In this document: positions 1,434-63,040 of the stretch, one piece after another | Layout: every line of letters begins with the position of its first letter | Numbering within the stretch: position 1 is the stretch's first letter | Assembly (NCBI GenBank): GCA_018901655.1 | Contig: JAHIEG010000004.1 | Location: forward strand, 4,267-68,266 | Direction of reading: 5' to 3' | Origin: Nanobdellota archaeon | GTDB taxonomy: Archaea; Aenigmatarchaeota; Aenigmatarchaeia; Aenigmatarchaeales; Aenigmatarchaeaceae | Length of the DNA: 64,000 nucleotides | Program-made: the position numbers and the translations under genes | Notes under the pieces: model-generated | What the model was told of the DNA's origin: nothing | Databases searched by the model: none | The model's input: only the letters and a program-made list of their open reading frames with translations

Positions 1434-1962
1434 TTTATTCCATTTCATATTTCCAATAATTGGAGCGCTTGCTGCTAAAGTTCACATTAAACATCCAATT
1501 AGAAATATTTTACTTGTTGCTGCACTTACGGTTCTAATTGATATTGATCATTTTATTGGACTAGAAAGAGCAACGTTTCACAATGTTTTTATAACAGTTC
1601 TTTTACCAATCGCGTTTATTGTGTGGGCATTTTCTCTTAAAAAGAATTTTTACATGAAAGCTTTTTCAATACTATTATTAATATTCCTTTCAAGCCATGT
1701 AATGTTAGACGTATTTACTGAACCAGGAGTTGCATTACTCTATCCATTTAGTTCTGAATATTATTCAATAGCATTTAATGTAGCAGTTCCTCTTACAAGT
1801 CAATTTGCAAGTGAAGGTTTAATCATATCATCAATTAGTATTGGGATATTATTATTTTTCATATTAGTTATACTCCCATGTTATTTCTTAGATGAGATAA
1901 TAGTTATTATGGAAAAGAAACATGAAAGTTTTTGGAAAGCTGTTAAAGATTTAAAGCATTAA
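1426..1962 (+). CDS. membrane-bound metal-dependent hydrolase-like protein (DUF457/YdjM-like), polytopic membrane
   Basis: Hydrophobic throughout with a conserved H…D…DIDH motif pattern. Start overlaps the pheT stop. Confidence 0.4.
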   Translation: MDSLFHFIFPIIGALAAKVHIKHPIRNILLVAALTVLIDIDHFIGLERATFHNVFITVLLPIAFIVWAFSLKKNFYMKAFSILLLIFLSSHVMLDVFTEPGVALLYPFSSEYYSIAFNVAVPLTSQFASEGLIISSISIGILLFFILVILPCYFLDEIIVIMEKKHESFWKAVKDLKH

Positions 1963-2752
1963 ACCATCCATCCAAATACTCTTTCAAACCAGTTTCCTTC
2001 TTTTTCTACAAACTCTGAACCAGAAATTTGTGCAGCCAATCTTCTAAACTCTTTAGATGATTTAGAACTTGGACTATTTTTTACAACTGGTATCTTACAC
2101 GCAATAGATCTTGGAATAGCAATATCTTCTGGAATAATAGAAATAATAGGTTTTTCTAACATGTGCTGAACATTTTCTATACTCATTTCATGTTTTAATC
2201 CTCTATATCGATTGATAACAATTCCTCGTACTGGTGTTCCAAATTGTTCAGCAATTTTAACAGTTTTTAATGCATCTGTTACTGCTGGAAGTTCTGGATT
2301 TGTTACAACTATAATTTCATCAGCAACGTTTATTGCAGCTAATGCTTCTTTACCAAGTCCTGCTGCTGCATCTATGATTATAATATCTGCTCTTCCTAAA
2401 AGATTAAGCATAACAGAATAAAGTTTTTCAATTCCAGTCTCTGCCATATCATCTGTCTTTAAAGAAGCTGGAATAATTTTTAATCCTGATTCGTGTTCAT
2501 ATATTGCTTCTGTTGCATCTACATCTCCTCTAAGTACGTCGTGTAAAGTTACTGGATAAAATGGTATTCCAAGATGTAGTGATAAATTTGGTGTTGTAAC
2601 ATTTGCATCTACTATTATTACTCTTTTTCCTTGTTTTATTAGAGACAATCCCAGGTTGGTTACAGTAGTGGTTTTTTCGGCCAAAAAAACAATATTTTAT
2701 TGGATTCCGACACCGCCCTTTCCCGAAATTATGCTTAGGACTCTAGTCATTT
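1959..2752 (-). pseudogene. minD: MinD/ParA-family cell-division ATPase with interrupted reading frame: a 30-nt insertion carrying an in-frame TAA sits inside the Walker A motif
   Basis: ATG at 2752 (overlapping the TGA of the upstream gene as ATGA) encodes MTRVLSIISGKGGVG, then IQ*NIVFLAE, then KTTTVTNLG… The rest of the protein is an intact MinD. The track ORF 1959..2684 starts at a TTG inside the insertion. Confidence 0.6.
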
Positions 2753-24483: not shown

Positions 24484-24774
24484 ATGGTAGGTGATAAAAT
24501 GAAGAAAGAATTTAGTATAGAAGAGGCAAAGGAAATTGGTGAAAAGCTTGGAGTAAAATGGGATACGTTTGACGTTGATCAATTTAGACGAGGTATGAAT
24601 GTCGAACTAGAACATGGAACAGTTGATACAAATACAAATGTAACAAATGACGATGCTTTAATGACGGGAAAAATAACTCTAGCACATCTTAATGAAATAA
24701 GAGACTATTATGATCGTTTAGAAGAAATGGAAAAAACTGCTGAAGCTTTTTGGGAAAGCAAATCTACTGAATAA
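24484..24774 (+). CDS. hypothetical protein
   Basis: ORF only. Confidence 0.4.
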   Translation: MVGDKMKKEFSIEEAKEIGEKLGVKWDTFDVDQFRRGMNVELEHGTVDTNTNVTNDDALMTGKITLAHLNEIRDYYDRLEEMEKTAEAFWESKSTE

Positions 24775-25627
24775 TTTTTTCAGCCTCAGTTTGTAATTGT
24801 TTTATTATTCTAATAGATATTCCTGTCTTTTGACTTAATATGGTTGGATCAATTTTCACCATTTCGTTTATCAAAACGATTCCTACTGTTGCCAATTTAC
24901 CCTGCGTGTTTGTATCTAATGTATGTAAAGCTGTTATTGGATATAAATTATTTTGAACCATTAATTCTCTTAAAGAGTTTCCTCTAGGATAATTCCAACT
25001 TAATAATCTAATACCTTTTGCTTCTGCATATTTAATTACGTCTTTTGAAAACATTGTATTAGTTGCCAACCAAGATTGATCAAACTTTGGACCAAGACCT
25101 TTCTTTGAAGCATCCTGAATATCTAAAAATCTTGCATAAGTATAAAGAACATCTTTTACCCCTGTATAAATTCCAGGTGAAGCGTGATATTTACATTCAA
25201 TTACATAATTTTTCATATCTGGTGTATCTATTCCTTTTGGAACTTTAATTGATTTAGAAGCAATAACATCAATCTCATGTGTTATTCCAGATCCGCCTTT
25301 TAGTATAGAATTTATTTTTGTTTTATATCCATGAGACTTCAAAACACTTGCAACAAGTTGCTCAAATGAAAACCCACTTGGACCCAATCTTAATAGAGAA
25401 CCCTTAAGATCATAACGCATTGCAACCGTTGGCATATCTCTTCTCAATAAGTGTAATGTAATATTAAGAACTTCCTGAGTTGACATCCCACCTGTTACTT
25501 TCTGCTCAACTTTTTTAGCAATCTGATCAGCTAATTGTTTAGACGCCCCTGCTCTACGACAAGTTCGTCTTATCTTATTTATATTAAACTTAACTATTTT
25601 TCCAGTTGACTTAGTTATCCAAACCAT
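24764..25627 (-). CDS. ATP-cone domain + Mrr-like restriction-endonuclease-fold (PD-(D/E)xK) domain protein
   Basis: N-terminal …KIVKFNINKIRRTCRRAG… ATP-cone. C-terminal …HEIDVIAS…VIECKYH… D/ExK motif. Confidence 0.6.
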   Translation of the reverse strand: MVWITKSTGKIVKFNINKIRRTCRRAGASKQLADQIAKKVEQKVTGGMSTQEVLNITLHLLRRDMPTVAMRYDLKGSLLRLGPSGFSFEQLVASVLKSHGYKTKINSILKGGSGITHEIDVIASKSIKVPKGIDTPDMKNYVIECKYHASPGIYTGVKDVLYTYARFLDIQDASKKGLGPKFDQSWLATNTMFSKDVIKYAEAKGIRLLSWNYPRGNSLRELMVQNNLYPITALHTLDTNTQGKLATVGIVLINEMVKIDPTILSQKTGISIRIIKQLQTEAEKIIQ

Positions 25628-36684: not shown

Positions 36685-37032
36685 TTATTCTGGAAAGCCT
36701 TCATAAAATTTTCTTGAACTATCTGGTTTCATTTTCTGTGCTACCATTAAAAACCCATATGTCTCTGCTGCTGGTGATGCAGCATCAATTCTTCTTCCAA
36801 CCATAATTTCTATTGCTGACCACATATCATTTATTCCATCAAAATATAATGCAGCTTCTACCCTTTGCTCTCTTGTTAAATTATCCAAATCAACTTCAAC
36901 AGATGTATCTTTTGAATATGTTTCGAGTAACATTGATACATATCCATCAATTGTTTTTGGATCATTTATTTCTTCAACCATATTATTATTTACTACCCAA
37001 AGGTATTTAAATAGATAACTATGCTTCAACAA
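36685..37032 (-). CDS. hypothetical protein
   Basis: ORF only. Confidence 0.35.
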   Translation of the reverse strand: MLKHSYLFKYLWVVNNNMVEEINDPKTIDGYVSMLLETYSKDTSVEVDLDNLTREQRVEAALYFDGINDMWSAIEIMVGRRIDAASPAAETYGFLMVAQKMKPDSSRKFYEGFPE

Positions 37033-38107
37033 ACATTGTTTTTACTTTAGGTGTTAAAGAATACATAAATGTCTTTCCTCTTGATTCTCTTTGAACAAAC
37101 CCGTCTAACATTAGTCGATGAAGAATATTATTAGTTGATCTAATTGCGTGTCCTTTTGTCTTATAGGACTTAAAATCAAGCTTTTCTATAATCAGAGACG
37201 GTGTAACCCAATTTTCATTAGATAAAAGTTCAACTATTTTTCTCTGTTTGTATGGAAGACTCTTAATTTGATCCATTGATGGTGGTTTAGGTGAAAAATA
37301 AACAACTGGTTCATCAACTCTCACATTTTGCGGTGTGAATTCCCTTAATCCATCAACATCTGATGCATCTATTACTTTTTTATCAACTCGACTAATTAAT
37401 TTATCACAGTGTTTTAAAACTTCTCTTGGAAATCCACCTGTTCGATGATAAATCTTATCAATTGCATCTTCTGTAAACGGAATCGTGCCTGAACCTCCTA
37501 CAGATTCAATTCTCTTTCTTATCAAATCTCGAGTATCGTCTCTTGTAAGTGATGTTAAGGTTATTCTATTAGTTATTCTTTGATCTAAGGTTTCAAGTTT
37601 CTCTTTTAACATTTCTTCAAGAACTGGTAATCCAGCCATTGTTAGACTAACATTATCTATTTGATCAACTGTTACTCTTAACCATTCTAAAACATCTTTA
37701 TTAGTTTCGTGTGCTTCATCAAGTAAAAATACCAAATGGTTGCCTTTTAGCTTATTATTTATATATTTTGGTAAATTATGTAGATTTGGTTTCTTTTTTA
37801 ATATTTTTTCCCAAAACGTTAATGGAAAAGCATCTAATGCTATGTCTACAAACATATCTGGATTTTGAGGCGGCTTACTTACATAGAACACATTTTCTCT
37901 AATATTATATTCAAGCCACTTTAACATAGAAGTCTTTCCAGAACCTGTATTTCCAGTCAAAAGAGCTACTTTATGCTTATTTTCTATATGATTCATCATA
38001 GCTTTTACTTGTTCCTCATACCCAGTAAATAACTTAGGATCTATTGTAAGTACAAAAGGATTCGATTTCCAATTCCATTTAGTTAAATTGTCTTGCATCT
38101 TAATCAA
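37019..38107 (-). CDS. AAA+ ATPase with C-terminal winged helix, Orc1/Cdc6-like (possible second initiator paralogue or Arch_ATPase family)
   Basis: Walker A GNTGSGKTS, Walker B LVFLLDEAHE, C-terminal wHTH …RKIVELLSNENWVTPSLIIEKL…. Its start abuts the repeat array. Confidence 0.55.
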   Translation of the reverse strand: MIKMQDNLTKWNWKSNPFVLTIDPKLFTGYEEQVKAMMNHIENKHKVALLTGNTGSGKTSMLKWLEYNIRENVFYVSKPPQNPDMFVDIALDAFPLTFWEKILKKKPNLHNLPKYINNKLKGNHLVFLLDEAHETNKDVLEWLRVTVDQIDNVSLTMAGLPVLEEMLKEKLETLDQRITNRITLTSLTRDDTRDLIRKRIESVGGSGTIPFTEDAIDKIYHRTGGFPREVLKHCDKLISRVDKKVIDASDVDGLREFTPQNVRVDEPVVYFSPKPPSMDQIKSLPYKQRKIVELLSNENWVTPSLIIEKLDFKSYKTKGHAIRSTNNILHRLMLDGFVQRESRGKTFMYSLTPKVKTMFVEA

Positions 38108-38142
38108 TTATATATTTATTTTCAGATATTTAAAGCTTTTTA

Positions 38143-38420
38143 GTTCACGTGAAGTTCATGTGAACATTTCGTGAAGGTTTCACGTGAAGTTGCTTTGTTT
38201 TTGTTAAAAAATCATATAATTTTGATTAAAAATGAAATGTGTGTTTTCGGCGTGAAGTTCATGTGAAGTTCACGTTACCTTCACGTGAAGGTCTAAATGT
38301 TCACGTGAACATTTATCAGAATGTTGAAATTACAATGCCCAATAAGTCGGTTTTGAGAGATATTCACGTGAAGTTCACGCGTGAAGATGTGAAGGTTTCG
38401 TGAAGAACAAAGTGAAGGTT
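38143..38420. repeat. array of about 12 copies of the palindromic motif (T)TCACGTGAAG(G/T)T in direct and inverted orientation (ORB-like), with an A/T-rich stretch; candidate replication origin or initiator binding platform
   Basis: Seen directly: GTTCACGTGAAGTTCATGTGAAC, TTTCACGTGAAG, a perfect 20-nt palindrome AAATGTTCACGTGAACATTT (38297..38316), ATTCACGTGAAGTTCACGCGTGAAG, and others. A/T-rich 38193..38245. Confidence 0.6.
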
Positions 38421-38491
38421 TAATGAATAAATGCAATTAAAATACCTTAAAAATAGTCTCTCATGATACTATAGATTAACCATATGTTTAT

Positions 38492-39806: not shown

Positions 39807-42800
39807 TTAAGCCCCACCTACAAAACCACAATCATCACACACTGCCAAGTCTTTTGTAAACGCAAAGTATTGTATTGCTGTTTTTGTTGCAATGTTTTTA
39901 GTTAATTGGGTTATTGCATCTGGGTCTGGATTAGCATCAGCAAGCCATATATGACTCATTGCTCCTCCATCTGTTAAAGGATGAAAGGATCCTTCTATTT
40001 GTAATCTTTTGAATAGTGGCACATTTGCATCTGGCCTTACGTGAAATGAATTGGTATAATATATTGATTTTGTATCTGAATTTCCTTGATAAATTACTTT
40101 ATTTGGATATCGTCTTTTATCTATCATTGCTAAACGACCACCCGTTGATTCAGCTGGAGTTCTTGCCAAAGCAAAATTTAATCCTGTTTCTTCTCTAAGT
40201 GCTGCTATCTTAGTTTTTAAATATTTCATTATTTTTAATCCAAACATCCAAGCTGACTGACTTTCATGTAATTCAGAACCTGTATAATATTTTACCATTT
40301 CATTAAATCCAATATGACCAATTGTATAACTCTGTTTTAAAGGTTCTAAGTATCTATCACCTTTTTCATTTACTATTTGACTCATGAAAGGTAACATTCC
40401 ATTTTGTAAATTCTTTTCTATTAAATCTTTTCTAAGAATCATAATTCTTTTAATCAATTCTAATCTCTCATCAATTATTTCATATATTCTGCTTTCTTCT
40501 TTATCAGACTCATATGCAATTTGTGGTAAGTTTAAAGTTACTACTTGTAATGATCCTCCTCTGACAGTTCCGTTTAACATGTCATCTGCATCTGATGATT
40601 TATCTAATGGCATAAGATAGGCACAACAGTTCGATGAAAATATTCCATCTGATGTTAAAAAATTATGATACTTTTCAACATTAATTAAATCATATACGTA
40701 TCGGCTTTTTACTTCTTCTATTTTCTTTACTTCAAATAAGTGTAAATCGCTTCTTATGAATTTTGAATATAATTCATCGTTCATTTCGAGTCTTTTTTCT
40801 GTTACTCTTTTACCAATTTGACACCTGTTCCAATGTCCTGTTTTTAAATTTTCTCTTTTAATATCAAATGGATTAACTGGGACCCTTTCATAAGAATCAA
40901 ATGATTTACCTAATATTGTAGGAACGTTATCAGAAAATGGCACTGATTCCAGAAATGAGCTCTTTCTTAAATTACTTGTTAATCTTAACGAATGAGAATT
41001 TTCTCCATGATATTTATCAAATGGAACCCCTATTCTCAAACCAAGTACAAAAATATCATCAATTAAGTCTCTATTACACAAATGTAAATCTATCTTATCT
41101 GAATTTGAACCGTCTCCTCTAAACATTCCAAGCATGAAATCCTTTATAATATACCAAGGAGAAGTCATGAGTATTTTTGGTACTCTTTTGGTTTTAGCAT
41201 CATAATTTGTTCCAATATTATCAAATAGTTCAACAAGTTCTTTGCTATAAACATAAACTGTGTTTGTATTATTCTTTTCTGAAATATCAAACTTAGCTTC
41301 TAAACCAAATTTTTCCTTAAGTATTTTAGCTGTATCGTCAATGTATTCTTTTTCTTTAATATTGAATGAGAATGATATCTTGTTATATCTTGTTTTCTTA
41401 TTTGCTATGTGCATATATCCTTCACTTGCAAAATATCCAAGAAGTCTTGCAAATTTAGCATCTATTTCTATTTTTTTATTATTAAAATCAACAAATCGAT
41501 CAAATTCAAACTCAAGTGGTAAATTCTTAGCACCAATTAAATAGTCTCCTTTCTTGACATCTTCCATTCTTATTTCACTTATCTTATTATTCCTCACAAC
41601 TGGTATTTTGTGTTTTTCTGTTCCTGAAAAAGTCCTATTTCCATCAAGAATTAATTTGAAAATCTTTTCTTTTGTTTCGTGTTTCATTACTTTTTCTATT
41701 TTTGTTTTCTTTATTTCAAGCGTATTTGTATCGAATGATATTGCATAATCATTACATTTTGATAGCTTAACTTTTCCTTCAATGCCGCTTCCTTTCTCGA
41801 CTATAGATTTTTTCATTATAGATTCAACATATTCTCCTATTTCGATATTTATGAGTCTATCATCTCTTAAAATCAATATCTTCTCTTCACCTGGTATTGA
41901 TTGATAACATGAAAATTCAGGCATATATGGCTGTTTAATTATGTAATATGGTGTTCCAAACTTTGCTGCAAGACTAGAAACTTTATACGTCTCTTCATTG
42001 TATCTTCCAGCTGCTAAATCTTTTGGATCCATTTGTACTTCAAACTTAGGAAAGTTAAATGGTTTTCCTTGCCAATCTCCTTTATCAAACACGTCTAAAA
42101 ATGCATTAAATAGTTTTCTTGTCTCATCTTCATAGTCTCCATAAGTTCCTGTTGCTCCACTTTTTCTTAATCCAATTATTGGAATGTCTTTTAACATATT
42201 TGGAACATGCATATCTAAATCGATTGAAGAAAATACAACCTGTCCTCCTCGCGCAACATACATTTGACTATTATGCAAAGCTATACCACTGATTGAAATA
42301 AAGTTCTGTGTTTCTTCTATCTCTAAATCATAAACATAAATTTCTTTATCTAATTTTTTAATACTTGTTATTTTTTCCAAGAATAGGTCATGGTTTAGAG
42401 GATTACAAGGAATGTTAGAAACATTCGTCATTGTTCCATTAAATGGTGCTAACATATAATCTGGCGTCTGTGGTACTCCTTTATTTTTTATTATATTTTC
42501 CAGTTTCAATGCCTTTTCATTCACAAATCCTATCTGATCCAAAAATTTCTTTGCAGAACTAATATCACATATATATAATAAATTAGAATCTTCATTTGCT
42601 TTTGTCTTTACTCCTTTGATAATAATCTCTTCTCCAGCTTTTCTAAATATCTTAGATTTAAATACAAGACCAAATCTTAAAAATGCAAATCTTAACTGTT
42701 CTAAAAGCTTTTTACTCGATGTTGTCATACCTACCATTCTTGAATCTGAAACATAACCGTCACTATTTACATAAGACTTTAAAAATTGTGACAATTTTTC

Positions 42801-44759
42801 TTTAGGTAAAGCTAATAGCCATGATGGTATTTTCTTATCTATAGCGTGTTCCCCCAGACCAAGAATGTCTCTAAATAACAAAGCCGCCAGCTTACCACCA
42901 AATCTTAAATTATACTCCTCTGCTTCATATGGATCAACTGACCCAAACACATGTTTTACACAAAATATGGCATCTTTTTTTATTAATTCGTTGTGGTCTA
43001 TACCAAGTCCTATTCCCATATTTTCATCAGAGGAATTAGTATAGCCTTCTGCAACATAGTATCCTATAAGTCTCAACAGTTCATCTGAAATACTTAATTT
43101 CAATGGCAAATAATATTTCTTTTTTGAAAATGTAGAAGATGTAACAAGTATATTTGATAAGACGCTTTTAGGCACATTATGTTTATCTACAATCTCTGTT
43201 AATTTTTTAAAACTTATTGTTCTTTTGCCTTCTAAAGCCTGTTTAACAAACCAACTATCTCCGATTTCTTTAGATGCTGAACCTAAAAAATCTATTAGTG
43301 GTTTGATGTTTGTAATTCTTAGCTTATGATAATCTCTTTTCTTTAATTCTTCATAAATATCTATAAATTCCTTGTCTATAGAAAAATCAATGTTTTTTAT
43401 TCCAACTATAAAATCATCATGCTTTAACTTAGACGTTTTTACTGGAACGATTTTTTCGCCATTAAATGTAAAAACAGAATGATGCCCCGTTAAACTAATC
43501 TTTTTGCCAAAGTTTGTTCTTATTTCATATAAATCAGATGCTTTATGTCTAGACACTCCTGTTATCTGCATCTGTTTAATGGTTCCGTTTTCATCAAAAC
43601 TAAGTGTTTTATATTTCCTATTTTTTGTTTTGACAATTTCGCTTTTACTGTATCTGTGAACATCATTACTATTATCCACTATATTATCAACAAAATCTTT
43701 TATCTTAAAAATTCTAAATTCGTTTTCTTCGTCTATTACTGGTATCTCTTCTTCTCCATCAATGCTCATTTCATAAATAAACATTTGAGCTAGTTGTTTC
43801 ATCTGCTTTTCAGATAATCCAGAAACAGCTGGTGCCATAAAAGTATTAAAGAATGAAAACCCCTGTCCTCCTGCACAATTAGTCTGTGATGCTGCTAAAA
43901 TTTTTGCAGCGTGTAAAAAAGCAACTTCTGCGTTTTTTGCTGGACCAGCTATTGATGTATGCCTTCCTGTTCCATCTGGTTTAAAACCGTGTTTTAGGAA
44001 AAATCTAACATCATGACTAAAACAAAATGGTCGACTAAAGAAATAATCCATATCGTGAATATGAATGCTTCCATTCATGTGTGCATTTGCCATTTCTTTA
44101 GGAAGGATTTTAGTTAATGTGTATTCTTTACTTACTCGGTCAGCCATTATTTTATGAATTGTTTCTGGATTATACTGTAGGTTTGCATTTTCTTTTGATC
44201 CTCTATTTATTATTTGAGTTACATCATAAACTGGCATTCCAATTCTTGTATATAGTGCTCTTTCTTTTTCATAACCACTTTCTAAAAGTTTAACATTTAC
44301 TATTTCTCTTATTAGTGGTGCAGAAACATGTTCAATATTCATTGCTTTAATAAATTTTTCTGTCTCAAATGCAATCCGATCTGCATCTATAGGATTAAGT
44401 TCTGTTTCTCTAACAATTGATTCTGCGATTTTAACTCTATCAAATCTTTCAAAGGTCTGCATAGAAGTGCTTACATATATTTCTCCTGCTTTGAATCTTC
44501 TTGATGCAGGCGAATCATATTTTTGTAATAAAGCATAAATTAAAGGTCTAATATCTGACATCTTTACTCTTGAATCAGCGTAGTTATCAATTTCATTTGA
44601 TATTTTTCTTGCTATCTCTTCAGAAGTTCCTGCTCTTAGACATGATGAAAATGTTCTATCTTTAGAATAACGTTCAGTTTTTGCTAACCAGAATAGTACG
44701 TTACCCTTATCTTTGGTATAAAAATCTTCAATTACTTTAGGAGATATCTTACTAGACAT
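39807..44759 (-). CDS. nrdD: anaerobic (class III) ribonucleoside-triphosphate reductase, large part, containing two inteins; ends inside the Zn-ribbon (…CDDCGFVGGA*)
   Basis: Exteins (aa 1-331, 831-950, 1378-1650) carry NrdD motifs (N-terminal ATP-cone-like region, …NCAGGQGFSFF…). Two insertions have intein Hint/LAGLIDADG blocks. Confidence 0.9.
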   Translation of the reverse strand: MSSKISPKVIEDFYTKDKGNVLFWLAKTERYSKDRTFSSCLRAGTSEEIARKISNEIDNYADSRVKMSDIRPLIYALLQKYDSPASRRFKAGEIYVSTSMQTFERFDRVKIAESIVRETELNPIDADRIAFETEKFIKAMNIEHVSAPLIREIVNVKLLESGYEKERALYTRIGMPVYDVTQIINRGSKENANLQYNPETIHKIMADRVSKEYTLTKILPKEMANAHMNGSIHIHDMDYFFSRPFCFSHDVRFFLKHGFKPDGTGRHTSIAGPAKNAEVAFLHAAKILAASQTNCAGGQGFSFFNTFMAPAVSGLSEKQMKQLAQMFIYEMSIDGEEEIPVIDEENEFRIFKIKDFVDNIVDNSNDVHRYSKSEIVKTKNRKYKTLSFDENGTIKQMQITGVSRHKASDLYEIRTNFGKKISLTGHHSVFTFNGEKIVPVKTSKLKHDDFIVGIKNIDFSIDKEFIDIYEELKKRDYHKLRITNIKPLIDFLGSASKEIGDSWFVKQALEGKRTISFKKLTEIVDKHNVPKSVLSNILVTSSTFSKKKYYLPLKLSISDELLRLIGYYVAEGYTNSSDENMGIGLGIDHNELIKKDAIFCVKHVFGSVDPYEAEEYNLRFGGKLAALLFRDILGLGEHAIDKKIPSWLLALPKEKLSQFLKSYVNSDGYVSDSRMVGMTTSSKKLLEQLRFAFLRFGLVFKSKIFRKAGEEIIIKGVKTKANEDSNLLYICDISSAKKFLDQIGFVNEKALKLENIIKNKGVPQTPDYMLAPFNGTMTNVSNIPCNPLNHDLFLEKITSIKKLDKEIYVYDLEIEETQNFISISGIALHNSQMYVARGGQVVFSSIDLDMHVPNMLKDIPIIGLRKSGATGTYGDYEDETRKLFNAFLDVFDKGDWQGKPFNFPKFEVQMDPKDLAAGRYNEETYKVSSLAAKFGTPYYIIKQPYMPEFSCYQSIPGEEKILILRDDRLINIEIGEYVESIMKKSIVEKGSGIEGKVKLSKCNDYAISFDTNTLEIKKTKIEKVMKHETKEKIFKLILDGNRTFSGTEKHKIPVVRNNKISEIRMEDVKKGDYLIGAKNLPLEFEFDRFVDFNNKKIEIDAKFARLLGYFASEGYMHIANKKTRYNKISFSFNIKEKEYIDDTAKILKEKFGLEAKFDISEKNNTNTVYVYSKELVELFDNIGTNYDAKTKRVPKILMTSPWYIIKDFMLGMFRGDGSNSDKIDLHLCNRDLIDDIFVLGLRIGVPFDKYHGENSHSLRLTSNLRKSSFLESVPFSDNVPTILGKSFDSYERVPVNPFDIKRENLKTGHWNRCQIGKRVTEKRLEMNDELYSKFIRSDLHLFEVKKIEEVKSRYVYDLINVEKYHNFLTSDGIFSSNCCAYLMPLDKSSDADDMLNGTVRGGSLQVVTLNLPQIAYESDKEESRIYEIIDERLELIKRIMILRKDLIEKNLQNGMLPFMSQIVNEKGDRYLEPLKQSYTIGHIGFNEMVKYYTGSELHESQSAWMFGLKIMKYLKTKIAALREETGLNFALARTPAESTGGRLAMIDKRRYPNKVIYQGNSDTKSIYYTNSFHVRPDANVPLFKRLQIEGSFHPLTDGGAMSHIWLADANPDPDAITQLTKNIATKTAIQYFAFTKDLAVCDDCGFVGGA
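40629..41909 (-). mobile_element. intein 2 in NrdD (about 427 aa) with LAGLIDADG homing-endonuclease domain
   Basis: Begins CYQSIPGEEKILI, LAGLIDADG motifs …FARLLGYFASEGY… and …FMLGMFRGDGS…, ends …VYDLINVEKYHNFLTSDGIFSSN followed by C. Confidence 0.8.
42270..43766 (-). mobile_element. intein 1 in NrdD (about 499 aa) with LAGLIDADG homing-endonuclease domain
   Basis: Begins SIDGEEEIPV (block A-like), LAGLIDADG-type motifs …LLRLIGYYVAEGY… and …LKSYVNSDGYV…, ends …VYDLEIEETQNFISISGIALHN followed by S. Confidence 0.8.
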
Positions 44760-47351: not shown

Positions 47352-49034
47352 TTATCTTAACTTAACAGCAACTCCTTTCTTAAAATCTTTAATTTCTTTT
47401 TTGTTTAACAACGCCATTCCTGTTATAATTGGTTTACTATCTGAAACTATCAATACTTCTTCTCCTGGATAAATATCATCTGTTCGTTCAACAAACTTAG
47501 TAAATAATGATCTTCCACTTTTTACATGCTCAAGTATCTCTGATGGTACTTCAACTGTTTTCATCTTAATATATTTTGATCCTTCTAAGGTTGGTATAAA
47601 GAATCCATCATGTGGTCTTATTGTTCCAAGTAATTTTTTGTTTTTCCAAACTCTTCTAATCCGTCCTGTCTTTCTTGAAACTTCTGTGCTAAAACTTGTT
47701 TTAAACTTTGAACTAAATTGATATTCAATTGTTTTATTTACAATATCACTATTACTTGCTTTACCAATTGGTTCAACCTGATCTGGAACTATTGATTGTC
47801 CAAATGGATAAACTCCTTTTAATTCGATTGGTACTTTTCCAAACGGTTTCTTAACAAAATATTTTTTAGATTTAACTCCTTTAACCATTTTCTTAGCTCT
47901 TAGAACTTCTGGTCTATATTTCGATTCTTCGCCACACCATCGCAATGCGGATTTCTTCGAGATTGGTTCGTTCCCCAACAAATATTTTCTATATTTTTTG
48001 AGAACAAATTGTAACGCCTCAAGCAATGCCGGATGTGCTCTTGCTCTTTGTTGTACTAACTCCCACAAACTATTATCTCTGATTGCTTGGCGTATGGATC
48101 TTAATTCCGCGAATGTAACATAAAGATTGTGTCTTGCCAATTCTTTTACTTTTGCTGAATTTTCTAATTCTATTAATTCTTTAACCGTGTATTTTGTGCA
48201 TATCGGACATGAACATGGCAACTCTATTAATTCTTCTAATCTATGCGTTCCGTAATTTGTCATATATCTATTATCATATGCGTATAATGCGTAGGCAGCT
48301 GAATCAAAAATATCAGAACCTATGGCAACAGCCAAACTCATAAAACTAGGCAGACCCAAGCCAAATGCGTGGAGCGGCTTATTTGAAGGTATGTTCATTT
48401 TCGCTGTTATAATCTGCTGGCATACTGTTTTAAAATCATATCTTATCATCTTCGGCACAATCGAACCAATAGCATATGCATCAAAATCTAATTTGCCAAC
48501 GGATTTTGCACATTTTTTAACAAGATCAAGGTGTTCTCCGCCTTGTATCGGAGCCATCCATGATATTTTTGAATTCTCTGTTAATAATTTGCATTCTTTC
48601 GCTCTTTTAATTGTTTCGAGCACTGTTTTTTTCGCGTCATCATATTTTAAATCTCCAGATGTAACATCTAAAAAGGTTCCAATGTCTGGTTTTATTTTCT
48701 CTTGAAATTCAATTATCTCTTTATTTGTTAAATTAATAGACGACCCGAACATTGTTTGATATGCCCCACTGTCTGTCATTATCATACCGTCAAAATTCAA
48801 GAAATCATGAAGTCCTCGTTTCGAAATATCTTCCATTAACCTTGATCTTTTAATCAGATACGCATTTGTAATTATTAGTTTCGCCCCAAATTCTTTTTTT
48901 AATTCGGCTGGCGTTATTATCATTTTCCCAGGATTTATTACTACAGCCAGTTCTGGGAGCACTATGTTCCGATCACCCAAAGTTAGTTTAGATATTCGAC
49001 CTGAACAATCACGAGAGAGAAGTTCTAACATCAT
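47352..49034 (-). CDS. tgtA: archaeosine tRNA-guanine transglycosylase (ArcTGT) with C-terminal PUA domain
   Basis: TGT catalytic barrel, Zn site …CSCPICTKY…, C-terminal PUA-like segment. 560 aa. Confidence 0.9.
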   Translation of the reverse strand: MMLELLSRDCSGRISKLTLGDRNIVLPELAVVINPGKMIITPAELKKEFGAKLIITNAYLIKRSRLMEDISKRGLHDFLNFDGMIMTDSGAYQTMFGSSINLTNKEIIEFQEKIKPDIGTFLDVTSGDLKYDDAKKTVLETIKRAKECKLLTENSKISWMAPIQGGEHLDLVKKCAKSVGKLDFDAYAIGSIVPKMIRYDFKTVCQQIITAKMNIPSNKPLHAFGLGLPSFMSLAVAIGSDIFDSAAYALYAYDNRYMTNYGTHRLEELIELPCSCPICTKYTVKELIELENSAKVKELARHNLYVTFAELRSIRQAIRDNSLWELVQQRARAHPALLEALQFVLKKYRKYLLGNEPISKKSALRWCGEESKYRPEVLRAKKMVKGVKSKKYFVKKPFGKVPIELKGVYPFGQSIVPDQVEPIGKASNSDIVNKTIEYQFSSKFKTSFSTEVSRKTGRIRRVWKNKKLLGTIRPHDGFFIPTLEGSKYIKMKTVEVPSEILEHVKSGRSLFTKFVERTDDIYPGEEVLIVSDSKPIITGMALLNKKEIKDFKKGVAVKLR

Positions 49035-50220
49035 TTAACCTCCATACAGATTTTTTATTACTTCCAATCCTTTCTATTGTGCCCATTCTTTGTAGATTAT
49101 TAAGATGTTTCCGCATAGTTATTTGTGACCTATCAAATCTTATCGAAAGATCTTTACTTTTAAGAACATCTTTGTTATCAAACTCCTTTAATATTATCTG
49201 TTGAATTTCTCCTTTTTTATATTGTTTATTAAACTTACGAGAAACTAGTGCCACTATCCTTTCTTTTTTGAGCATATGAATGAAACTTACCTTTTCTTTA
49301 AATGTCTTGATTTGATATTGTCCCGTAATTCCGAAACCTAGACATATCCTATCTCTTTCTTTTCTAGATCTCATTTTTCTAACCGCATCGGGACTTACAC
49401 CCAAACCTATCAACATTTTTCTTGTATGTTCCAGAAACTCATTCAGATTTTCTGCTATTTGTGTCTTTTTATCAAAACATATTCTTATGTTATTATGTTT
49501 GTAACATACTGTTCCTTCATCATCAAATAACGCCTGTAAGAATGCTGACTTAATTTCATTTGATCCGTTCAGAATCCAATCTGGTATAAAATATTGTTTC
49601 TCTGTCTTCTTACCATCTGGTGCTCCGCATAAAATTAATAATTTACCGATAACATTCGAAAATGTTATCATAGTTTTTACTTTATTTGTAACGGTTATAA
49701 CTTCTGTTCCAGTGTTTAGATTTTTTCCGAAGACTTTGACGACATCTTTCCTAACACTTTCAACCAACTCCTTTCTTGTATTTGAATATTGAAACTGATT
49801 TGCTCTTTTACTGATATGTCCATCGCCCATCGCATGAGCAACAAGTCTAGCCAAAGCAGCTGATGATACTACTGGCAATTTAACAGGAATCAGTTGATGA
49901 TGCTTACCGCGCATATATTTTATATTTTTCTCAATATCAGAATATGGTATTTCTGATAGCTTTGATATGTTTCTAATCATATGCGAACTAGCTAAAGCCT
50001 CTTCTCTTATTCCTTTTCTGTTTCGAAAGCCATTTTTTATTTCTATCACATGAGAATCGTGCATATTAAATATCTTGGCCAGTTTTTTCCACTCTCCTCC
50101 AGCGTTATATCTTGCTCTGTCAAATAGTTTTTTTCTGAATTCGTCGTTGATGCCGATAAAAATACTGTTTGGTAAATTATCTAATGATATTAAATTCGTG
50201 CGATCCGTCATATAAATCAC
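49009..50220 (-). CDS. free-standing HTH + double-LAGLIDADG + C-terminal winged-helix protein (intact paralogue of 2749..3887)
   Basis: N-terminal …GEWKKLAKIFNMHDSHVIEIKNGFR… HTH, …LARLVAHAMGDGHIS… (motif 1), …LQALFDDEGTV… (motif 2), C-terminal …HLNNLQRMGTIERIGSNKKSVWRL…. Confidence 0.65.
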   Translation of the reverse strand: MIYMTDRTNLISLDNLPNSIFIGINDEFRKKLFDRARYNAGGEWKKLAKIFNMHDSHVIEIKNGFRNRKGIREEALASSHMIRNISKLSEIPYSDIEKNIKYMRGKHHQLIPVKLPVVSSAALARLVAHAMGDGHISKRANQFQYSNTRKELVESVRKDVVKVFGKNLNTGTEVITVTNKVKTMITFSNVIGKLLILCGAPDGKKTEKQYFIPDWILNGSNEIKSAFLQALFDDEGTVCYKHNNIRICFDKKTQIAENLNEFLEHTRKMLIGLGVSPDAVRKMRSRKERDRICLGFGITGQYQIKTFKEKVSFIHMLKKERIVALVSRKFNKQYKKGEIQQIILKEFDNKDVLKSKDLSIRFDRSQITMRKHLNNLQRMGTIERIGSNKKSVWRLNDVRTSLS

Positions 50221-59668: not shown

Positions 59669-59740
59669 AGTTACTATTCAATAGTTATAAATACAACATC
59701 TAATATTGTTTTATATTCTATCTACGTCAATAAGTATAGT

Positions 59741-60457
59741 ATGGAAGATGATATTGCTAAAGAATCATTGTCTAAGAAGATAGCTGGTGAAATTGTTCTA
59801 AGTGAAGAACCTGGAAAAACAATACAAAAGTGGAGAAATATATTCAAAATACCTCAAAGGACTTTAGCTAATGAACTTGGTATGATGCCTTCTGTTATAT
59901 CTGATTATGAAAATGGTAGACGACAAAGCCCAGGAATTAAGATTATCAGAAAAATTGTAACTTCTATGATTAATTTAGATGAAAAGGCTGGTGGTAAAGT
60001 GATTAGAGAGTTTTCAAACATGCCTTCAAATAACAACGTTAATGACGCTCTAATAGATAGTAAGGAATTTAGTAAGGGTATTATTATTAAAGATTTTTGT
60101 AAGAAAATCAAGGCAGAGTTGGTAGTAAGACGGGATATGGAAAACGACAAGATTTATGGTTATAGTATAATCGACGCTCTAAAAGCTATAGTAGAATTAT
60201 CGCCAAGTGAGATGGTTAGACTTCATGGATTAACTAGCAAGAAAGCTCTAATATTTTCAGGTGCTAATACTGGACGAAGTTCTATGATCGCTCTAAAAAT
60301 AGGTAATGTTAGACCTGGTCTAGTCGTTCTTCAGACAAAAGAAAAAGATATCGACGTTCTTGCAAGACGGATCGCTCATATTGAAGGTATTCCGGTAGCT
60401 GTTCTTGATATTAAAACTTCTGAACTCAAATCAGCTATTAAGAAGGTATTTAAATGA
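59741..60457 (+). CDS. XRE-type HTH transcriptional regulator with C-terminal domain (archaeal COG1395-like)
   Basis: …QKWRNIFKIPQRTLANELGMMPSVISDYENGRR… HTH. Confidence 0.55.
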   Translation: MEDDIAKESLSKKIAGEIVLSEEPGKTIQKWRNIFKIPQRTLANELGMMPSVISDYENGRRQSPGIKIIRKIVTSMINLDEKAGGKVIREFSNMPSNNNVNDALIDSKEFSKGIIIKDFCKKIKAELVVRRDMENDKIYGYSIIDALKAIVELSPSEMVRLHGLTSKKALIFSGANTGRSSMIALKIGNVRPGLVVLQTKEKDIDVLARRIAHIEGIPVAVLDIKTSELKSAIKKVFK

Positions 60458-60639
60458 GTCCTTTTGTAAAAGGTTCAAAAGAAGGTCAAAAATTTATTAA
60501 TGATGTTATTAAAATTACAGAAAAATTATCTAAAAGGGACGAATATTCTCTAGAAAAAGGTACGTGTTGTTGTCCACAAAAAAATTATTATTTTAATATC
60601 TGATTAAGACCCACACCCCATCGTTTCCTAACGAACTGC

Positions 60640-60900
60640 TCTATATAATAATATATATAAACATTATTATATTATAATAACAGTGTTATATTTTTCATTT
60701 AAAATCGTTGTTATTTTTCTCTAGTTTTAGAAATGTTCCAAAGGAAACAGTGGTGGTAGCGACGATATTACCCCGTTATACCCCTATATTGCATATAAAA
60801 ATGAAGGAACGTGAAGTTCCATAGGCAGCAAAGGGGTAACGTGAAGATAGGTATAAATATGTTCACGGGACAAATCTACATAAGAAGTAGAGGTTATAAC
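60640..60900. promoter_or_regulatory. A/T-rich stretch + three CGTGAAG/CGTGAAC elements + GGAAACAGTGG ORB-like element immediately upstream of orc1/cdc6: candidate origin of replication
   Basis: Seen: A/T-rich 60640..60720; GAACGTGAAGTTCCA (60806..60820), TAACGTGAAGATAGG (60838..60852), ATGTTCACGGGAC (60859..60871, inverted); GTTCCAAAGGAAACAGTGGTGG (60734..60755). Confidence 0.5.
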
Positions 60901-62088
60901 ATGACACTAGAGAATATATTTGACAAATACATGAACAATAATAATATATTCACCAATAGGTCTGTGCTGTCAATTTCATTCACCCCAGAATCTATTCCCC
61001 ACCGGGAGGCACAGATGAACGAACTTGGTCGGATCCTTGCCCCGTCACTTAGGGGCGAGAAACCAAGTAATGTTTTTGTTTATGGTCGAACTGGAACAGG
61101 TAAATCTGTTGTTACTAGACTTGTAGGAGCAGAACTCGAAAAAAGATCAAAAGAGAATGGACATTCTGTAAAAGTAGTTTATTTGAATTGTAAGATGAAA
61201 ACAGCTGATACGGAATATAGATTACTGGCTAGCTTATCTAATGAATTTGGAGTTCATGTTCCGTTTACTGGACTTCCAACAGACCAAGTTTATAAAATTT
61301 TCTTTAATTGTATTGATTCAGTTAAACAAAATGTGATTATAATTATCGATGAAATAGATGCTCTTATTCAGAAAAATGGAGATGAAATTCTTTATAATTT
61401 AACAAGAATTAATCAGGATCTAAAAAATTCCACCCTTTCGATTATAGGAATTACTAATGATTTAGGATTTATTAATAATTTAGATCCAAGAATTAAGTCA
61501 TCTCTTGGTGAAGAAGAGCTTATTTTTCCACCATATGACGCTGTCCAACTTCAAGATATTCTTAGAAATAGAGCAGAACAAGCATTTGTTGTAAAATCAT
61601 TAGATGTGGGGGTTATTGAAAAATGTGCTGCTTTAGCAGCTCAAGAACACGGAGATGCACGAAGGGCTTTAGACCTGTTAAGAGTATCTGGAGAACTAGC
61701 TGAACGAACAGGTTCAATAGTAGTAAACATATCTCATGTTGATCAGGCAGAGGATAAAATAGATATTGATCGAACAGTTGAATTAATGAGAGCACAACCA
61801 AAACAATCTCAGGCTGTTTTGTGGTCAATTGTTAAAAACGATAAAAAAAACAATATAGAAACTGGAGATATAATTGATGTTTATCATGAGGTTTGTAGAG
61901 AGAACTGTCTTAAACCTTTAACACAAAGAAGGGTTTCTGATTTAATATCAGAATTAGACATGTTTCAGGTAATTAATACTAAAGTTATTTCAAAAGGGAG
62001 ATATGGAAGAACAAGAGTTGTTTCTCTAAACGTCTCTGATAATATTCATACAAAATTAACAAATATGTTACAACAGAATTTCTTGTGA
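60901..62088 (+). CDS. cdc6: Orc1/Cdc6 replication initiator
   Basis: Walker A GRTGTGKS, Walker B IIIIDEID, C-terminal wHTH. Start placed at ATG 60901 (MTLENIFDKYM…). The track's GTG start at 60811 lies inside the repeat region. Confidence 0.9.
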   Translation: MTLENIFDKYMNNNNIFTNRSVLSISFTPESIPHREAQMNELGRILAPSLRGEKPSNVFVYGRTGTGKSVVTRLVGAELEKRSKENGHSVKVVYLNCKMKTADTEYRLLASLSNEFGVHVPFTGLPTDQVYKIFFNCIDSVKQNVIIIIDEIDALIQKNGDEILYNLTRINQDLKNSTLSIIGITNDLGFINNLDPRIKSSLGEEELIFPPYDAVQLQDILRNRAEQAFVVKSLDVGVIEKCAALAAQEHGDARRALDLLRVSGELAERTGSIVVNISHVDQAEDKIDIDRTVELMRAQPKQSQAVLWSIVKNDKKNNIETGDIIDVYHEVCRENCLKPLTQRRVSDLISELDMFQVINTKVISKGRYGRTRVVSLNVSDNIHTKLTNMLQQNFL

Positions 62089-62092
62089 TTTT

Positions 62093-63040
62093 ATGGAAAT
62101 AGTAAAAGATTTAATGAAAATGGGAATATTGGTGGATCAGGAAGCTATTGATGCACTGAATAATCTTAAAGATACTGAACTTACTGTGGTTGTTGAAAAA
62201 ACAAAAATAGAAAGACCACTTGTATTAACTCCTGAGTTGGTTTCAATGTATTTGAAATCTACTAAATATGAAATTATTAAACAATTTGAGAGCAAGGAAG
62301 CTTATACAATTCAGGACATAGTTGAACAGTTAAATAAAAGATATGATTTTATTCAAGGCCTGTTAATGAGAAAAGTAGAACTGTCAAACATAGTTTCAAT
62401 AAATAAGTGTGAAAGTGGAAAACTTACTGTAATAGGACTGGTTAAGAAAAAAGAAGATAGTGGAACAAATGATATTCTTGAATTAGAAGACAAGACCGGA
62501 ACACTAAAAGCAGTTATTTCAAAAGATCTTGGTAAAGATATTAAAATTGATGATGTAATCGCGGTTTATGGAAACTATAATAATAAACTTTTGTTTGGAG
62601 AAACATTAAGATATCCAGATGTTCCACTTAGAAAAGCAGGGTGTTCTGAGAAAGAAACAAGGGTTAGTTTTATAATAAACTATGATTTTCAAAAACAAAT
62701 GGATATTGACTCAGAATATATCATAATTAGTAATTGTGATGGTTTAGACGGGGTTAAACAAAGATACCCAAGATCAAAAGTGTTTGTTATTGGAACAGAT
62801 ATTAGGTCTCCTTGTTTAATCAATATTGATGGCGTTGTGTTTATGATAATTTTAGATATTGATCCACTAAAAGCGCTAAAGAGAAGATATGTTTCGATTG
62901 ATAAAACAGATTTTTTGGTAAATACAGTACCAGATATAATTTTAACAAATAGGGAAATTGAAACGAACTATAAATCAATAAGTGTTATTAGTAAATCTGT
63001 TGAAATAAATTTAAAAACTAGAGAAATTAATATAATTTAA
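62093..63040 (+). CDS. DNA polymerase II small subunit (DP1)-like protein: N-terminal helical domain + OB fold, but short (315 aa) with no recognisable phosphoesterase motifs
   Basis: N-terminus MEIVKDLMKMGILVDQEAIDAL… and OB block …GKLTVIGLVKKKEDSGTNDILELEDKTGTLKAVIS… resemble DP1. No GDxxD/GNHD/GNHE motifs. Confidence 0.45.
   Translation: MEIVKDLMKMGILVDQEAIDALNNLKDTELTVVVEKTKIERPLVLTPELVSMYLKSTKYEIIKQFESKEAYTIQDIVEQLNKRYDFIQGLLMRKVELSNIVSINKCESGKLTVIGLVKKKEDSGTNDILELEDKTGTLKAVISKDLGKDIKIDDVIAVYGNYNNKLLFGETLRYPDVPLRKAGCSEKETRVSFIINYDFQKQMDIDSEYIIISNCDGLDGVKQRYPRSKVFVIGTDIRSPCLINIDGVVFMIILDIDPLKALKRRYVSIDKTDFLVNTVPDIILTNREIETNYKSISVISKSVEINLKTREINII

Follow-up and report, generated by a model that had tools for sequence, protein, structure and literature searches.

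This analysis concerns a 64-kb stretch of an archaeal chromosome (contig JAHIEG010000004.1 of assembly GCA_018901655.1, Aenigmatarchaeota; hereafter the window), in particular the intergenic region at 60604–60900, upstream of an open reading frame (ORF) with its ATG at 60901, and a CGTGAA motif which this region has in common with a repeat array at 38 kb. The ORF is an orc1/cdc6 gene (60901..62088, plus strand, 395 aa) with Pfam matches to Cdc6_C (1.6e-25) and Cdc6_lid (6.7e-24) and a match to the NCBIfam ORC1-type equivalog (9.7e-153; 508.7 bits against a cutoff of 501). The place of the origin-like region directly before a bona fide orc1/cdc6 gene, as proposed by an earlier interpretation of the DNA letters (hereafter the sequence-only reading), is thus borne out. 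The gene has a conserved 5′ leader with a GAGGT Shine–Dalgarno sequence at 60890–60894. On its other side, the intergenic region is flanked by a gene encoding a 238-aa XRE-type helix-turn-helix protein (Pfam HTH_3; 59741..60457, plus strand), with a DnaG-like Toprim gene further upstream. Downstream of cdc6 follow a gene for a DP1-like OB-fold protein (62093..63040, plus strand, 315 aa), for which NCBIfam models of the small subunit of DNA polymerase D (PolD) match residues 2–194 only and far under cutoff, and a family-B DNA polymerase (PolB) gene starting at 63454, recognised by an exonuclease domain match.

Close relatives were taken from a protein collection (L035, L036, L037/L038, L039, and L040, with Cdc6 70–79% identical, and L048 with 67%), and a contig search with Cdc6 returned only relatives of ≤57% identity; a look-up of the exact Cdc6 sequence of the window gave no match. 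Homologue searches put the organism within or close to the Aenigmatarchaeota. The gene order HTH_3, origin, cdc6, DP1-like, PolB is kept in L035–L040 and L048, so that the cdc6/DP1-like/PolB arrangement to which the sequence-only reading had drawn attention is real and conserved. No HTH_3 gene lies near cdc6 in the distant genomes.

Predicted origin elements upstream of orc1/cdc6

A weight matrix for the origin recognition box (ORB) was derived from 19 ORBs of distant relatives’ genomes, none of them from the window, and both strands were scanned (128 kb). In shuffled controls (n = 30), the top score had a mean of 12.5 bits and a maximum of 16.8 bits. The best match in the window, with 24.6 bits, was ORB2 (60736..60757, plus strand; TTCCAAAGGAAACAGTGGTGGT), a classical ORB that is conserved in the relatives and is the sole exact match to TTCCANNGGAAAY in the window. 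ORB3 (60817..60838, plus strand; TTCCATAGGCAGCAAAGGGGTA), a degenerate ORB in the cdc6 promoter region, ranked second with 20.9 bits, and its TTCCATA-G-AG....GGGG positions are invariant in six relatives. The third-ranked match (60614–60635, minus strand; TTCGTTAGGAAACGATGGGGTG; 18.9 bits) belongs to ORB1 (60610..60636, minus strand; TTCGTTAGGAAACGATGGGGTGTGGG), a classical, inverted ORB which is kept in six relatives and whose G-string is directed away from the adjacent A/T-rich block. The fourth-ranked match in the window reached 12.4 bits. Neither the 38-kb array nor the CGTGAA boxes at 60806–60867 (see below) matched the ORB matrix, and TTCCANNGGAAAY with ≤1 mismatch gave no match at the 38-kb locus.

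Between the inverted ORB1 and ORB2, whose G-strings both face outwards, lies an A/T-rich block (60637..60735), a putative duplex unwinding element (DUE), and the same layout is seen in the relatives. Its segment 60644–60723 has 87.5% A+T, which places it in the top 0.1% of all 80-bp segments of the window. The A/T-rich block (~60640–60730), the two direct and one inverted copies of CGTGAAG/CGTGAAC, and the element GGAAACAGTGG were all found where the sequence-only reading had put them. Its comparison of GGAAACAGTGG (60743–60753) with ORB cores was apt, since this element is part of an ORB; the full extent of ORB2, the inverted ORB1, and the degenerate ORB3 had escaped that reading.

In the distant relatives (contigs of Woesearchaeota, Aenigmatarchaeota, Methanofastidiosa-like archaea, and Methanocorpusculum; Cdc6 ≤57% identical), classical ORBs were found upstream of every cdc6 gene inspected. 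These ORBs consist of TTCCAnnGGAAAy followed by a G-string and form an inverted pair around an A/T block, often with an extra direct copy proximal to the gene. Hence, the layout ORB (inverted), A/T block, ORB, (ORB), cdc6 is common to the window and these contigs; the position of the inverted ORB1, too, recurs in distant archaea. At the orthologous locus, the ORB-DUE-ORB architecture is present in seven close relatives (L035–L040 and L048) and in several distant ones. Cumulative GC skew has a local minimum at ~60 kb, although over 64 kb it mainly reflects gene orientation.

The region 60610–60900 is therefore predicted to be a canonical ORB-DUE-ORB (oriC1-type) origin fused to the cdc6 promoter, because a true orc1/cdc6 gene adjoins it, its ORBs take ranks 1–3 with scores above those of all shuffles, and an inverted pair of them flanks the A/T-rich block. 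As an origin it is ordinary, of the textbook kind, and it is useful mainly for annotation, as it sets oriC and an ORB consensus for an uncultivated DPANN lineage. The recognition sequence of Orc1 is likely to be the ORB rather than CGTGAAG, which the sequence-only reading had taken for the initiator recognition sequence of this organism.

Further sequence features were recorded at the origin. In the middle of the A/T-rich block lies the palindrome ATAACAGTGTTAT (ATAAC-N3-GTTAT; 60677..60689), whose columns are invariant in the alignment of the relatives. The pattern occurs twice in the window (0.18 expected) and one to two times per genome in all seven close relatives, at origins only (L035 3772; L036 5996 and 6080; L037 2825; L039 3787; L040 9796; L048 2236 and 2327). 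The more distant L003 and L005 have a similar sequence, TAACAGTGTTA. The HTH_3 protein encoded beside the origin is a candidate binder of this palindrome. From the stop codon of the HTH_3 gene to ORB1 extend ~150 bp (60458–60604) that are lacking in the relatives and hold an ORF of 49 codons; a 19-nt imperfect repeat of the 3′ end of the HTH_3 gene (60406–60424 and 60504–60522) is possibly the remnant of a duplication. The cdc6 5′ leader at 60872–60897 (CTACATAAGAAGTAGAGGTT) aligns with an ORB-like sequence, TTTCCATAAGAAACTGAGGT, in L048 (~2470–2495) and may represent a decayed fourth ORB that overlaps the Shine–Dalgarno sequence. A terminator-like hairpin at 60806–60820 (GGAACGTGAAGTTCC on the plus strand; called on the minus strand by the scan) was discarded, as it is not kept as a hairpin in the relatives. 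A non-coding RNA was likewise rejected, since Rfam searches returned two tRNAs in the window and no non-coding RNA at either locus.

The CGTGAA motif at the cdc6 promoter and in the array at 38 kb

The heptamer CGTGAAG occurs 12 times in the window (2.19 expected), a count which none of 100 shuffles reached, and the more general CGTGAAS occurs 18 times (3.44 expected). The hexamer CGTGAA/TTCACG was found 27 times, with ~12 expected for the whole window: 16 copies fall into 38144–38399, three into 60810–60867, and eight into the remaining ~63 kb. Counted as CGTGAAG/CGTGAAC, three copies are located at 60810–60867 and ~16 at 38143–38405, without enrichment elsewhere in the 64 kb. Computed from the window counts, the Poisson expectation for three CGTGAA hexamers inside 58 bp is ~0.007. 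In the close relatives, hexamer clusters were likewise restricted to two places, the cdc6 promoter and the region upstream of the AAA+ gene next to the array. The expected and shuffled counts and the hexamer distribution indicate that the motif is real, common to both loci, and essentially confined to them, as the sequence-only reading had held for the link between 38143–38420 and the cdc6 locus (16 versus 3 hexamers). Chance as the source of the CGTGAAG clustering was ruled out by the shuffles and the distribution of matches. A general promoter element was ruled out for the sequence available, because no other cluster occurs in the window or in the close relatives; what the sequence-only reading had named as fatal to its proposal, a motif common to the promoters of unrelated genes, was thus not observed.

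Box 1 (60806..60816, plus strand; GGAACGTGAAG), with CGTGAAG at 60810–60816, abuts the 5′ end of ORB3, and its counterparts in the relatives (ACGTGAAC, TTCATGTGAAG, or TTCACGTG) occupy the same position. Box 2 (60836..60846, plus strand; GTAACGTGAAG), with CGTGAAG at 60840–60846, abuts the G-string of ORB3 and ends 5 bp before the TATA box; its TAACGTGAA (60837–60845) is invariant in six of six aligned relatives, whose flanking spacer is variable. The cdc6 TATA box (60852..60859, plus strand; TATAAATA) was assigned from archaeal promoter architecture, and an A/T octamer stands at the same position in all relatives. Box 3 (60861..60867, minus strand) is an inverted half-site (CGTGAAC on the minus strand, GTTCACG on the plus strand) whose TTCACG (60862–60867) is invariant in six relatives; judging from archaeal promoter geometry, it probably lies between the TATA box and the transcription start. 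Boxes 1 and 2 thus abut both ends of ORB3, and boxes 2 and 3 form an inverted pair bracketing the cdc6 TATA box.

The order of elements in L035–L040 is ORB1 (inverted), A/T block, ORB2, ~50 bp, box 1, ORB3, box 2, 5 bp, TATA octamer, 2 bp, and box 3, followed by ~35 bp with the conserved leader and GAGGT, and then the ATG. Box 1 takes the form ACGTGAAS, TTCATGTGAAG, or TTCACGTG, ORB3 that of TTCCATAGGMAG....GGGG, box 2 that of T(T)AACGTGAAS, and box 3 that of TTCACG. The centre-to-centre spacing in the relatives is 30–31 bp for boxes 1 and 2 and exactly 26 bp for boxes 2 and 3, whereas the flanks of the TATA box and the spacer of 5 bp vary from species to species in the alignment. L048 retains ORB1-DUE-ORB2 and ORB3 together with the TATA box and box 2; of box 1 there is at best a displaced GTGAA, and box 3 has decayed to TTCATT. 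Among 19 regions upstream of more distant cdc6 genes (Cdc6 ≤57% identical), 18 had no CGTGAAG within 700 bp and one (L011) had a single copy, and ORBs were kept wherever these regions were inspected. Because sequence and spacing are fixed amid variable spacers, and distant genomes keep the ORBs without the boxes, the boxes are regarded as a selected, lineage-specific element distinct from the ORB.

The array (38143..38430) lies upstream of an AAA+ ATPase gene on the minus strand and contains 16 CGTGAA/TTCACG hexamers, seven TTCAYGTGAA palindromes, and extra GTGAA half-sites. Its full unit is the palindrome TTCACGTGAA, with five exact copies and two of TTCATGTGAA, and the half-sites are partly in 11-bp phase. 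Inverted repeat arms (38144–38175 and 38258–38289, 78% complementary) surround a segment of 54 bp with 83% A+T (38193–38246); with a maximum of 80% A+T in any 80 bp, the array region is unexceptional for this genome. The genes on both sides of 38 kb are on the minus strand, and neither gene orientation nor GC skew switches there.

At the orthologous intergenic region between nrdG and the AAA+ gene, the array is kept in L041 (ATPase 81% identical) and L042 (75%; same metagenome-assembled genome as L036). In L043 (63% identical ATPase), it is even denser than in the window, and in L049 (64%), it is built of TTCACATGAA and TTCACatcTTCAC units. The repeat cluster and the initiator-like gene are hence conserved together in the window and in these four loci. 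At 42–44% ATPase identity, remnants were detected: two TTCACG directly upstream of the B recognition element and TATA box in L045, and several TAACGTGAA-like sites in the 750-bp intergenic region of L044.

Two further observations were made at the array. A segment free of the motif (38310–38362), located between two TTCACGTGAA palindromes and reading TATCTCTCAAAAC...AATTTCAACATTCTG on the gene strand, is conserved in three genomes (the window and the orthologous positions of L041 and L042), which suggests a further binding site or signal in the array. In L049, a free-standing LAGLIDADG_1 homing-endonuclease ORF (1742–2500) is inserted between the array with its promoter and the AAA+ gene, and the start codon of the ATPase gene directly follows the stop codon of this ORF.

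The AAA+-winged-helix ATPase and the reading of the boxes

The gene adjoining the array (37019..38098, minus strand) encodes a 359-aa AAA+ ATPase of the initiator clade with a C-terminal winged helix, and a TATA-like CTTTAAATAT precedes it at 38126–38135 on the minus strand. Its neighbours are nrdG-trx-nrdD on one side and genes for an adenylate-kinase-like protein, a PRC-barrel protein, radA, and rpa on the other. Pfam assigned AAA_22 only, without matches to Cdc6_C or Cdc6_lid, and no NCBIfam orc1/cdc6 model matched. By sequence, the protein is ExeA/MuB-like, its nearest relatives being TIGR03015 (1.9e-25, below cutoff), MuB (3.8e-5, with the family profile), and the PHROG family “DNA transposition protein” (1.3e-15). 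The AlphaFold2 model (predicted local distance difference test score 86.8) had Cdc6/Orc, MuB, and TnsC as its top fold matches and predicts an initiator-clade AAA+ fold, followed by a lid and the C-terminal winged helix; in 36 of 37 homologues, a winged helix of BlaI/MecI type is present at the C-terminus. BLASTP of the ATPase against the Cdc6 of the window was not significant, and hhalign of the ATPase family profile against a Cdc6 profile gave a probability of 77% (E-value 2e-5) for the AAA+ core only (residues 5–210). At the sequence level, the missing lid and winged-helix matches and the BLASTP result speak against an Orc1 paralogue; the likeness of the ATPase to Orc/Cdc6 is one of fold. 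The suggestion of the sequence-only reading to assay “each Orc1 paralogue” on each site presumed a second Orc1 at 38 kb and thereby loses its basis, and no second Orc1/Cdc6 was found among the ~70 ORFs scanned in the window. An origin of the ATPase in a defence system or a phage was rejected, as PADLOC gave weak, generic AAA+ matches and the MuB-like PHROG match had no mobile-element context.

The family comprises members of 58–81% identity in Aenigmatarchaeota and ~100 clusters at 50% identity with E-values ≤1e-30, and a metagenome search with it returned at least five loci. Walker A, Walker B, and a GGFPR segment are invariant in the family, and the putative recognition helix K-x-[HN]-A-x-R-S-x-N-N-I-L is kept in homologues down to 40% identity. 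Co-variation of helix and motif was uninformative, since the recognition helix and the GTGAA core are both kept down to 40–44% identity. A literature search on origins of Aenigmatarchaeota or on COG3267 in archaea returned nothing relevant.

The explanation that fits best overall, with a probability of roughly 60%, is an oriC1-type origin with ORBs in which the CGTGAA boxes would be operator-like sites of a second, non-Orc1 protein. Beyond the elements, their statistics and conservation, and the domain make-up and fold of the ATPase, we infer who binds what and in which direction regulation runs. Orc1/Cdc6 would recognise ORB1–3 and fire the origin at 60.6–60.8 kb; by analogy with Pyrococcus oriC and Sulfolobus oriC1, it would bind ORB1 and ORB2 and load MCM between them. 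The boxes would be bound by a sequence-specific protein other than Orc1/Cdc6, most likely the AAA+-winged-helix ATPase (less likely another factor), which is the best candidate because the array stayed with the promoter of its gene across the family. A protein bound at boxes 2 and 3 would obstruct TBP/TFB or RNA polymerase at the cdc6 promoter, and one bound at boxes 1 and 2 would compete or cooperate with Orc1/Cdc6 on ORB3. In this way, cdc6 expression or origin licensing might be coupled to the state of the second ATPase (its ATP/ADP form or its amount), and the large array might serve autoregulation of the AAA+ gene and/or titration or nucleation of its protein. The shared motif is the less ordinary part of the finding, as it is fixed around one ORB and the cdc6 TATA box and recurs as a dense array before the gene of a conserved Orc-like ATPase. 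If the ATPase binds the boxes, it would represent a new initiator-clade family controlling replication initiation and would form a simple cis/trans pair with them. Trans-acting factors known to regulate origins or cdc6 expression in archaea are few (examples are Sulfolobus Orc1-2 and UBP, and haloarchaeal ORB clusters), and none is known for DPANN. A bolder version is possible, though tentative: the ATPase could be dedicated to replication, either as a second, non-Orc initiator that fires from the TTCACGTGAA array or as a master regulator which nucleates there and gates the origin via the ORB3/TATA sandwich. If so, origin control in DPANN archaea would have a further layer of a new kind.

Several points weigh against the operator explanation. 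The array, with ~16 hexamers, is far bigger than autoregulation requires. The evidence that ties the motif to the ATPase is conserved adjacency, which makes the protein a candidate, and the HTH_3 gene co-occurs with the boxes equally well. Because TTCACGTGAA bears some resemblance to the ORB dyad TTCCAgTGGAA, recognition by Orc1/Cdc6 itself is conceivable. The TATA box and the transcription start were placed from sequence and have the standing of predictions. The 26 bp between boxes 2 and 3 correspond to ~2.5 helical turns and would place these boxes on opposite sides of the DNA, an awkward geometry for a simple repressor loop formed by a dimer of dimers. Outside the 64 kb covered, there may also be further motif sites and a wider regulon, as well as genes for other Orc1 paralogues or for another binder.

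The rival explanations differ in what they make of the array and of the binder. The array may itself be a second, non-Orc replicator with the ATPase as its initiator, the boxes at the cdc6 promoter then being cross-talk sites which sense or control the primary origin. We consider this doubtful. Inverted repeat clusters around an 83% A+T segment beside an initiator-clade AAA+-winged-helix gene, with far more sites than a promoter requires, partly in 11-bp phase and strongly conserved, are what such a replicator would have, and different origins of an archaeon are known to have initiators of their own, one of which is the non-Orc protein WhiP (PMC3607249, PMC4010727). However, the A/T-rich segment is short and not out of the ordinary, there is no switch of gene orientation or GC skew at 38 kb (the local minimum of the cumulative skew lies elsewhere, at ~60 kb), the closest sequence relatives of the ATPase are of ExeA/MuB type and not initiators, and the locus bears no signs of an integrated element, its neighbours being core genes in conserved synteny. 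Rather less probable is binding of the boxes by another transcription factor, for example the HTH_3 protein, with the array as another regulated promoter and the ATPase as its target. XRE-type helix-turn-helix proteins typically bind palindromes as dimers, and all relatives with the boxes have the HTH_3 gene in synteny with the origin; genomes without them do not have it near cdc6. Yet its own promoter region (59669–59740) has no box, the motif accompanies the AAA+ gene where neither the HTH_3 gene nor cdc6 is nearby (L043 and L045), and the site density at the AAA+ gene would be extreme for a simple target promoter.

The proposal of the sequence-only reading that CGTGAAG is the Orc1/Cdc6 recognition element (an ORB variant), so that there would be either two origins or one origin and a regulatory or titration site of Orc1, has become improbable. 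The three conserved classical ORBs are at the cdc6 locus with none at 38 kb, the winged helix of Cdc6 is the standard Cdc6_C and relatives with a similar Cdc6 use classical ORBs, the origins of distant genomes lack CGTGAAG even where Cdc6 is 50–57% identical, and the array tracks the gene of the AAA+-winged-helix ATPase down to 42% identity. In favour of the proposal are a motif that is common to the cdc6-proximal region and a repeat array beside an AAA+ gene, the TTC...GAA dyad character that TTCACGTGAA shares with the ORB core TTCCAnTGGAA, and the precedent of Haloarcula, in which an origin is under negative control by an ORB cluster apart from it (PMC4010727). Of that earlier interpretation, an origin in this region and the sharing of the motif by both loci hence remain, and the motif as initiator sequence and the Orc1 paralogue at 38 kb do not. 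Least probable is a role of the array in segregation, as a centromere-like (parS-like) site in the neighbourhood of the origin, of which the cdc6-proximal boxes would be outlying copies. TTCACGTGAA equals the inner 10 bp of the consensus for chromosomal parS of bacteria, and full-text literature matches of this string are papers on ParB/parS. Bacterial parS clusters lie near the origin; the array here is 22 kb from it. Because the flanks differ from the 16-bp consensus tGTTTCACGTGAAACa (10–12 of 16 positions match) and no ParB gene is in the window, the identity is probably a coincidence. No gene of ParB, ParA, or Seg type was found among the ~70 ORFs scanned, the sole ParA-family match in the window (1959–2447) being a fragment of an NUBPL/Mrp-type Fe-S P-loop protein, and the exact position of the boxes around ORB3 and the TATA box, kept in the relatives, points to control of the promoter or the origin and not to segregation.

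Other genes of the window and comparison with known systems

The remainder of the window is housekeeping chromosome, with genes for aminoacyl-tRNA synthetases, ftsZ, spt5, the ribosomal proteins L11/L1/L10, PFOR, and tRNA-guanine transglycosylase (TGT). The DP1-like protein (300–330 aa in the window, L035–L040, and L048) is always encoded between cdc6 and the PolB gene. Its similarity to the PolD small subunit is confined to the N-terminal and OB-fold part, without a phosphoesterase-domain match, which suggests a pairing of PolB with a B-subunit-like protein in this DPANN clade, reminiscent of eukaryotic polymerases. NrdD (39807–44759, minus strand), an anaerobic ribonucleotide reductase of 1650 aa, contains two intein splicing regions with LAGLIDADG domains and an ATP-cone. 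A 400-aa LAGLIDADG_3 ORF (49009–50211, minus strand) overlaps the start of the TGT gene (47352–49034, minus strand) and could be either an N-terminal part of TGT with an intein or an inserted homing-endonuclease gene. The 287-aa protein encoded at 24764–25627 (minus strand) combines an ATP-cone, an Mrr-type restriction-endonuclease-like domain, and an AF1548-like C-terminal domain, an unusual nucleotide-sensing architecture.

An ORB-DUE-ORB arrangement beside orc1/cdc6 has been described for Pyrococcus oriC and for Sulfolobus oriC1 (ORB3-DUE-ORB2) (PMC4010727, PMC12141716). The predicted origin resembles both in its position upstream of orc1/cdc6, in ORBs composed of a TTCCAnnGGAAA dyad and a G-string, in the inverted pair around the DUE, and in a further ORB on the gene side. 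It differs from them in that its promoter-proximal ORB is degenerate (GGCAGC for GGAAAC) and in that this ORB3 is tightly bracketed by a second conserved motif, which is not described for those origins.

Conserved elements other than ORBs are known from Sulfolobus, where ucm is present at all three origins and is bound by UBP, an abundant nucleoid protein of 111 aa with >300 sites (PMC12141716). The likeness lies in conserved non-ORB elements in or near an origin and in a non-initiator protein, which modulates the origin in Sulfolobus and is a putative binder here; with its place inside the DUE, the ATAAC-N3-GTTAT palindrome is positionally analogous to ucm. The CGTGAA boxes, in contrast, are outside the DUE in the cdc6 promoter, they are found at two loci in 64 kb, and their candidate binder is an AAA+ ATPase.

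A precedent for the proposed role is Sulfolobus Orc1-2, a regulator of transcription with an AAA+ module, an initiator-specific motif, and a winged helix, which binds ANTTTC in its own and other promoters in an ATP-dependent manner (PMC9738581). The ATPase of the window is comparable as an initiator-type AAA+ protein with a winged helix that is proposed to act at promoters, and likewise in the DNA-metabolism neighbourhood of its gene (nrdDG, radA, rpa). Whereas Orc1-2 is a true Orc1 paralogue, the ATPase lacks matches to the Cdc6 lid and winged-helix families, and its presumed sites are palindromic and massively reiterated.

In E. coli, the datA site cluster regulates initiation. Among archaea, replicator–initiator pairs (Sulfolobus oriC3 with WhiP and the haloarchaeal orc–oriC pairs) and an ORB cluster downstream of Haloarcula oriC2 have been described (PMC3607249, PMC4010727). 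As in such pairs, the repeat array adjoins the gene of its presumed cognate DNA-binding ATPase, and as in the Haloarcula oriC2 cluster and datA, a site cluster away from the origin could titrate or regulate an initiation factor. Unlike in these pairs, the ATPase belongs neither to the Orc1/Cdc6 nor to the Cdt1/WhiP family, the array shares no ORB with the primary origin, and any origin activity of it is putative.

Finally, the ATPase differs from AAA+ ATPases of the MuB/TnsC/ExeA type in that no transposase or transposon context was seen: it is encoded by a single conserved chromosomal gene in fixed synteny with nrdG and radA. In contrast to MuB and TnsC, it also has a C-terminal winged helix of the sequence-specific type. 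Measured against these systems, the origin is of an already known kind, whereas the proposed CGTGAA circuit, which would link the cdc6 promoter and ORB3 to an array at the gene of an uncharacterised Orc-like ATPase, would be a new variation on it.

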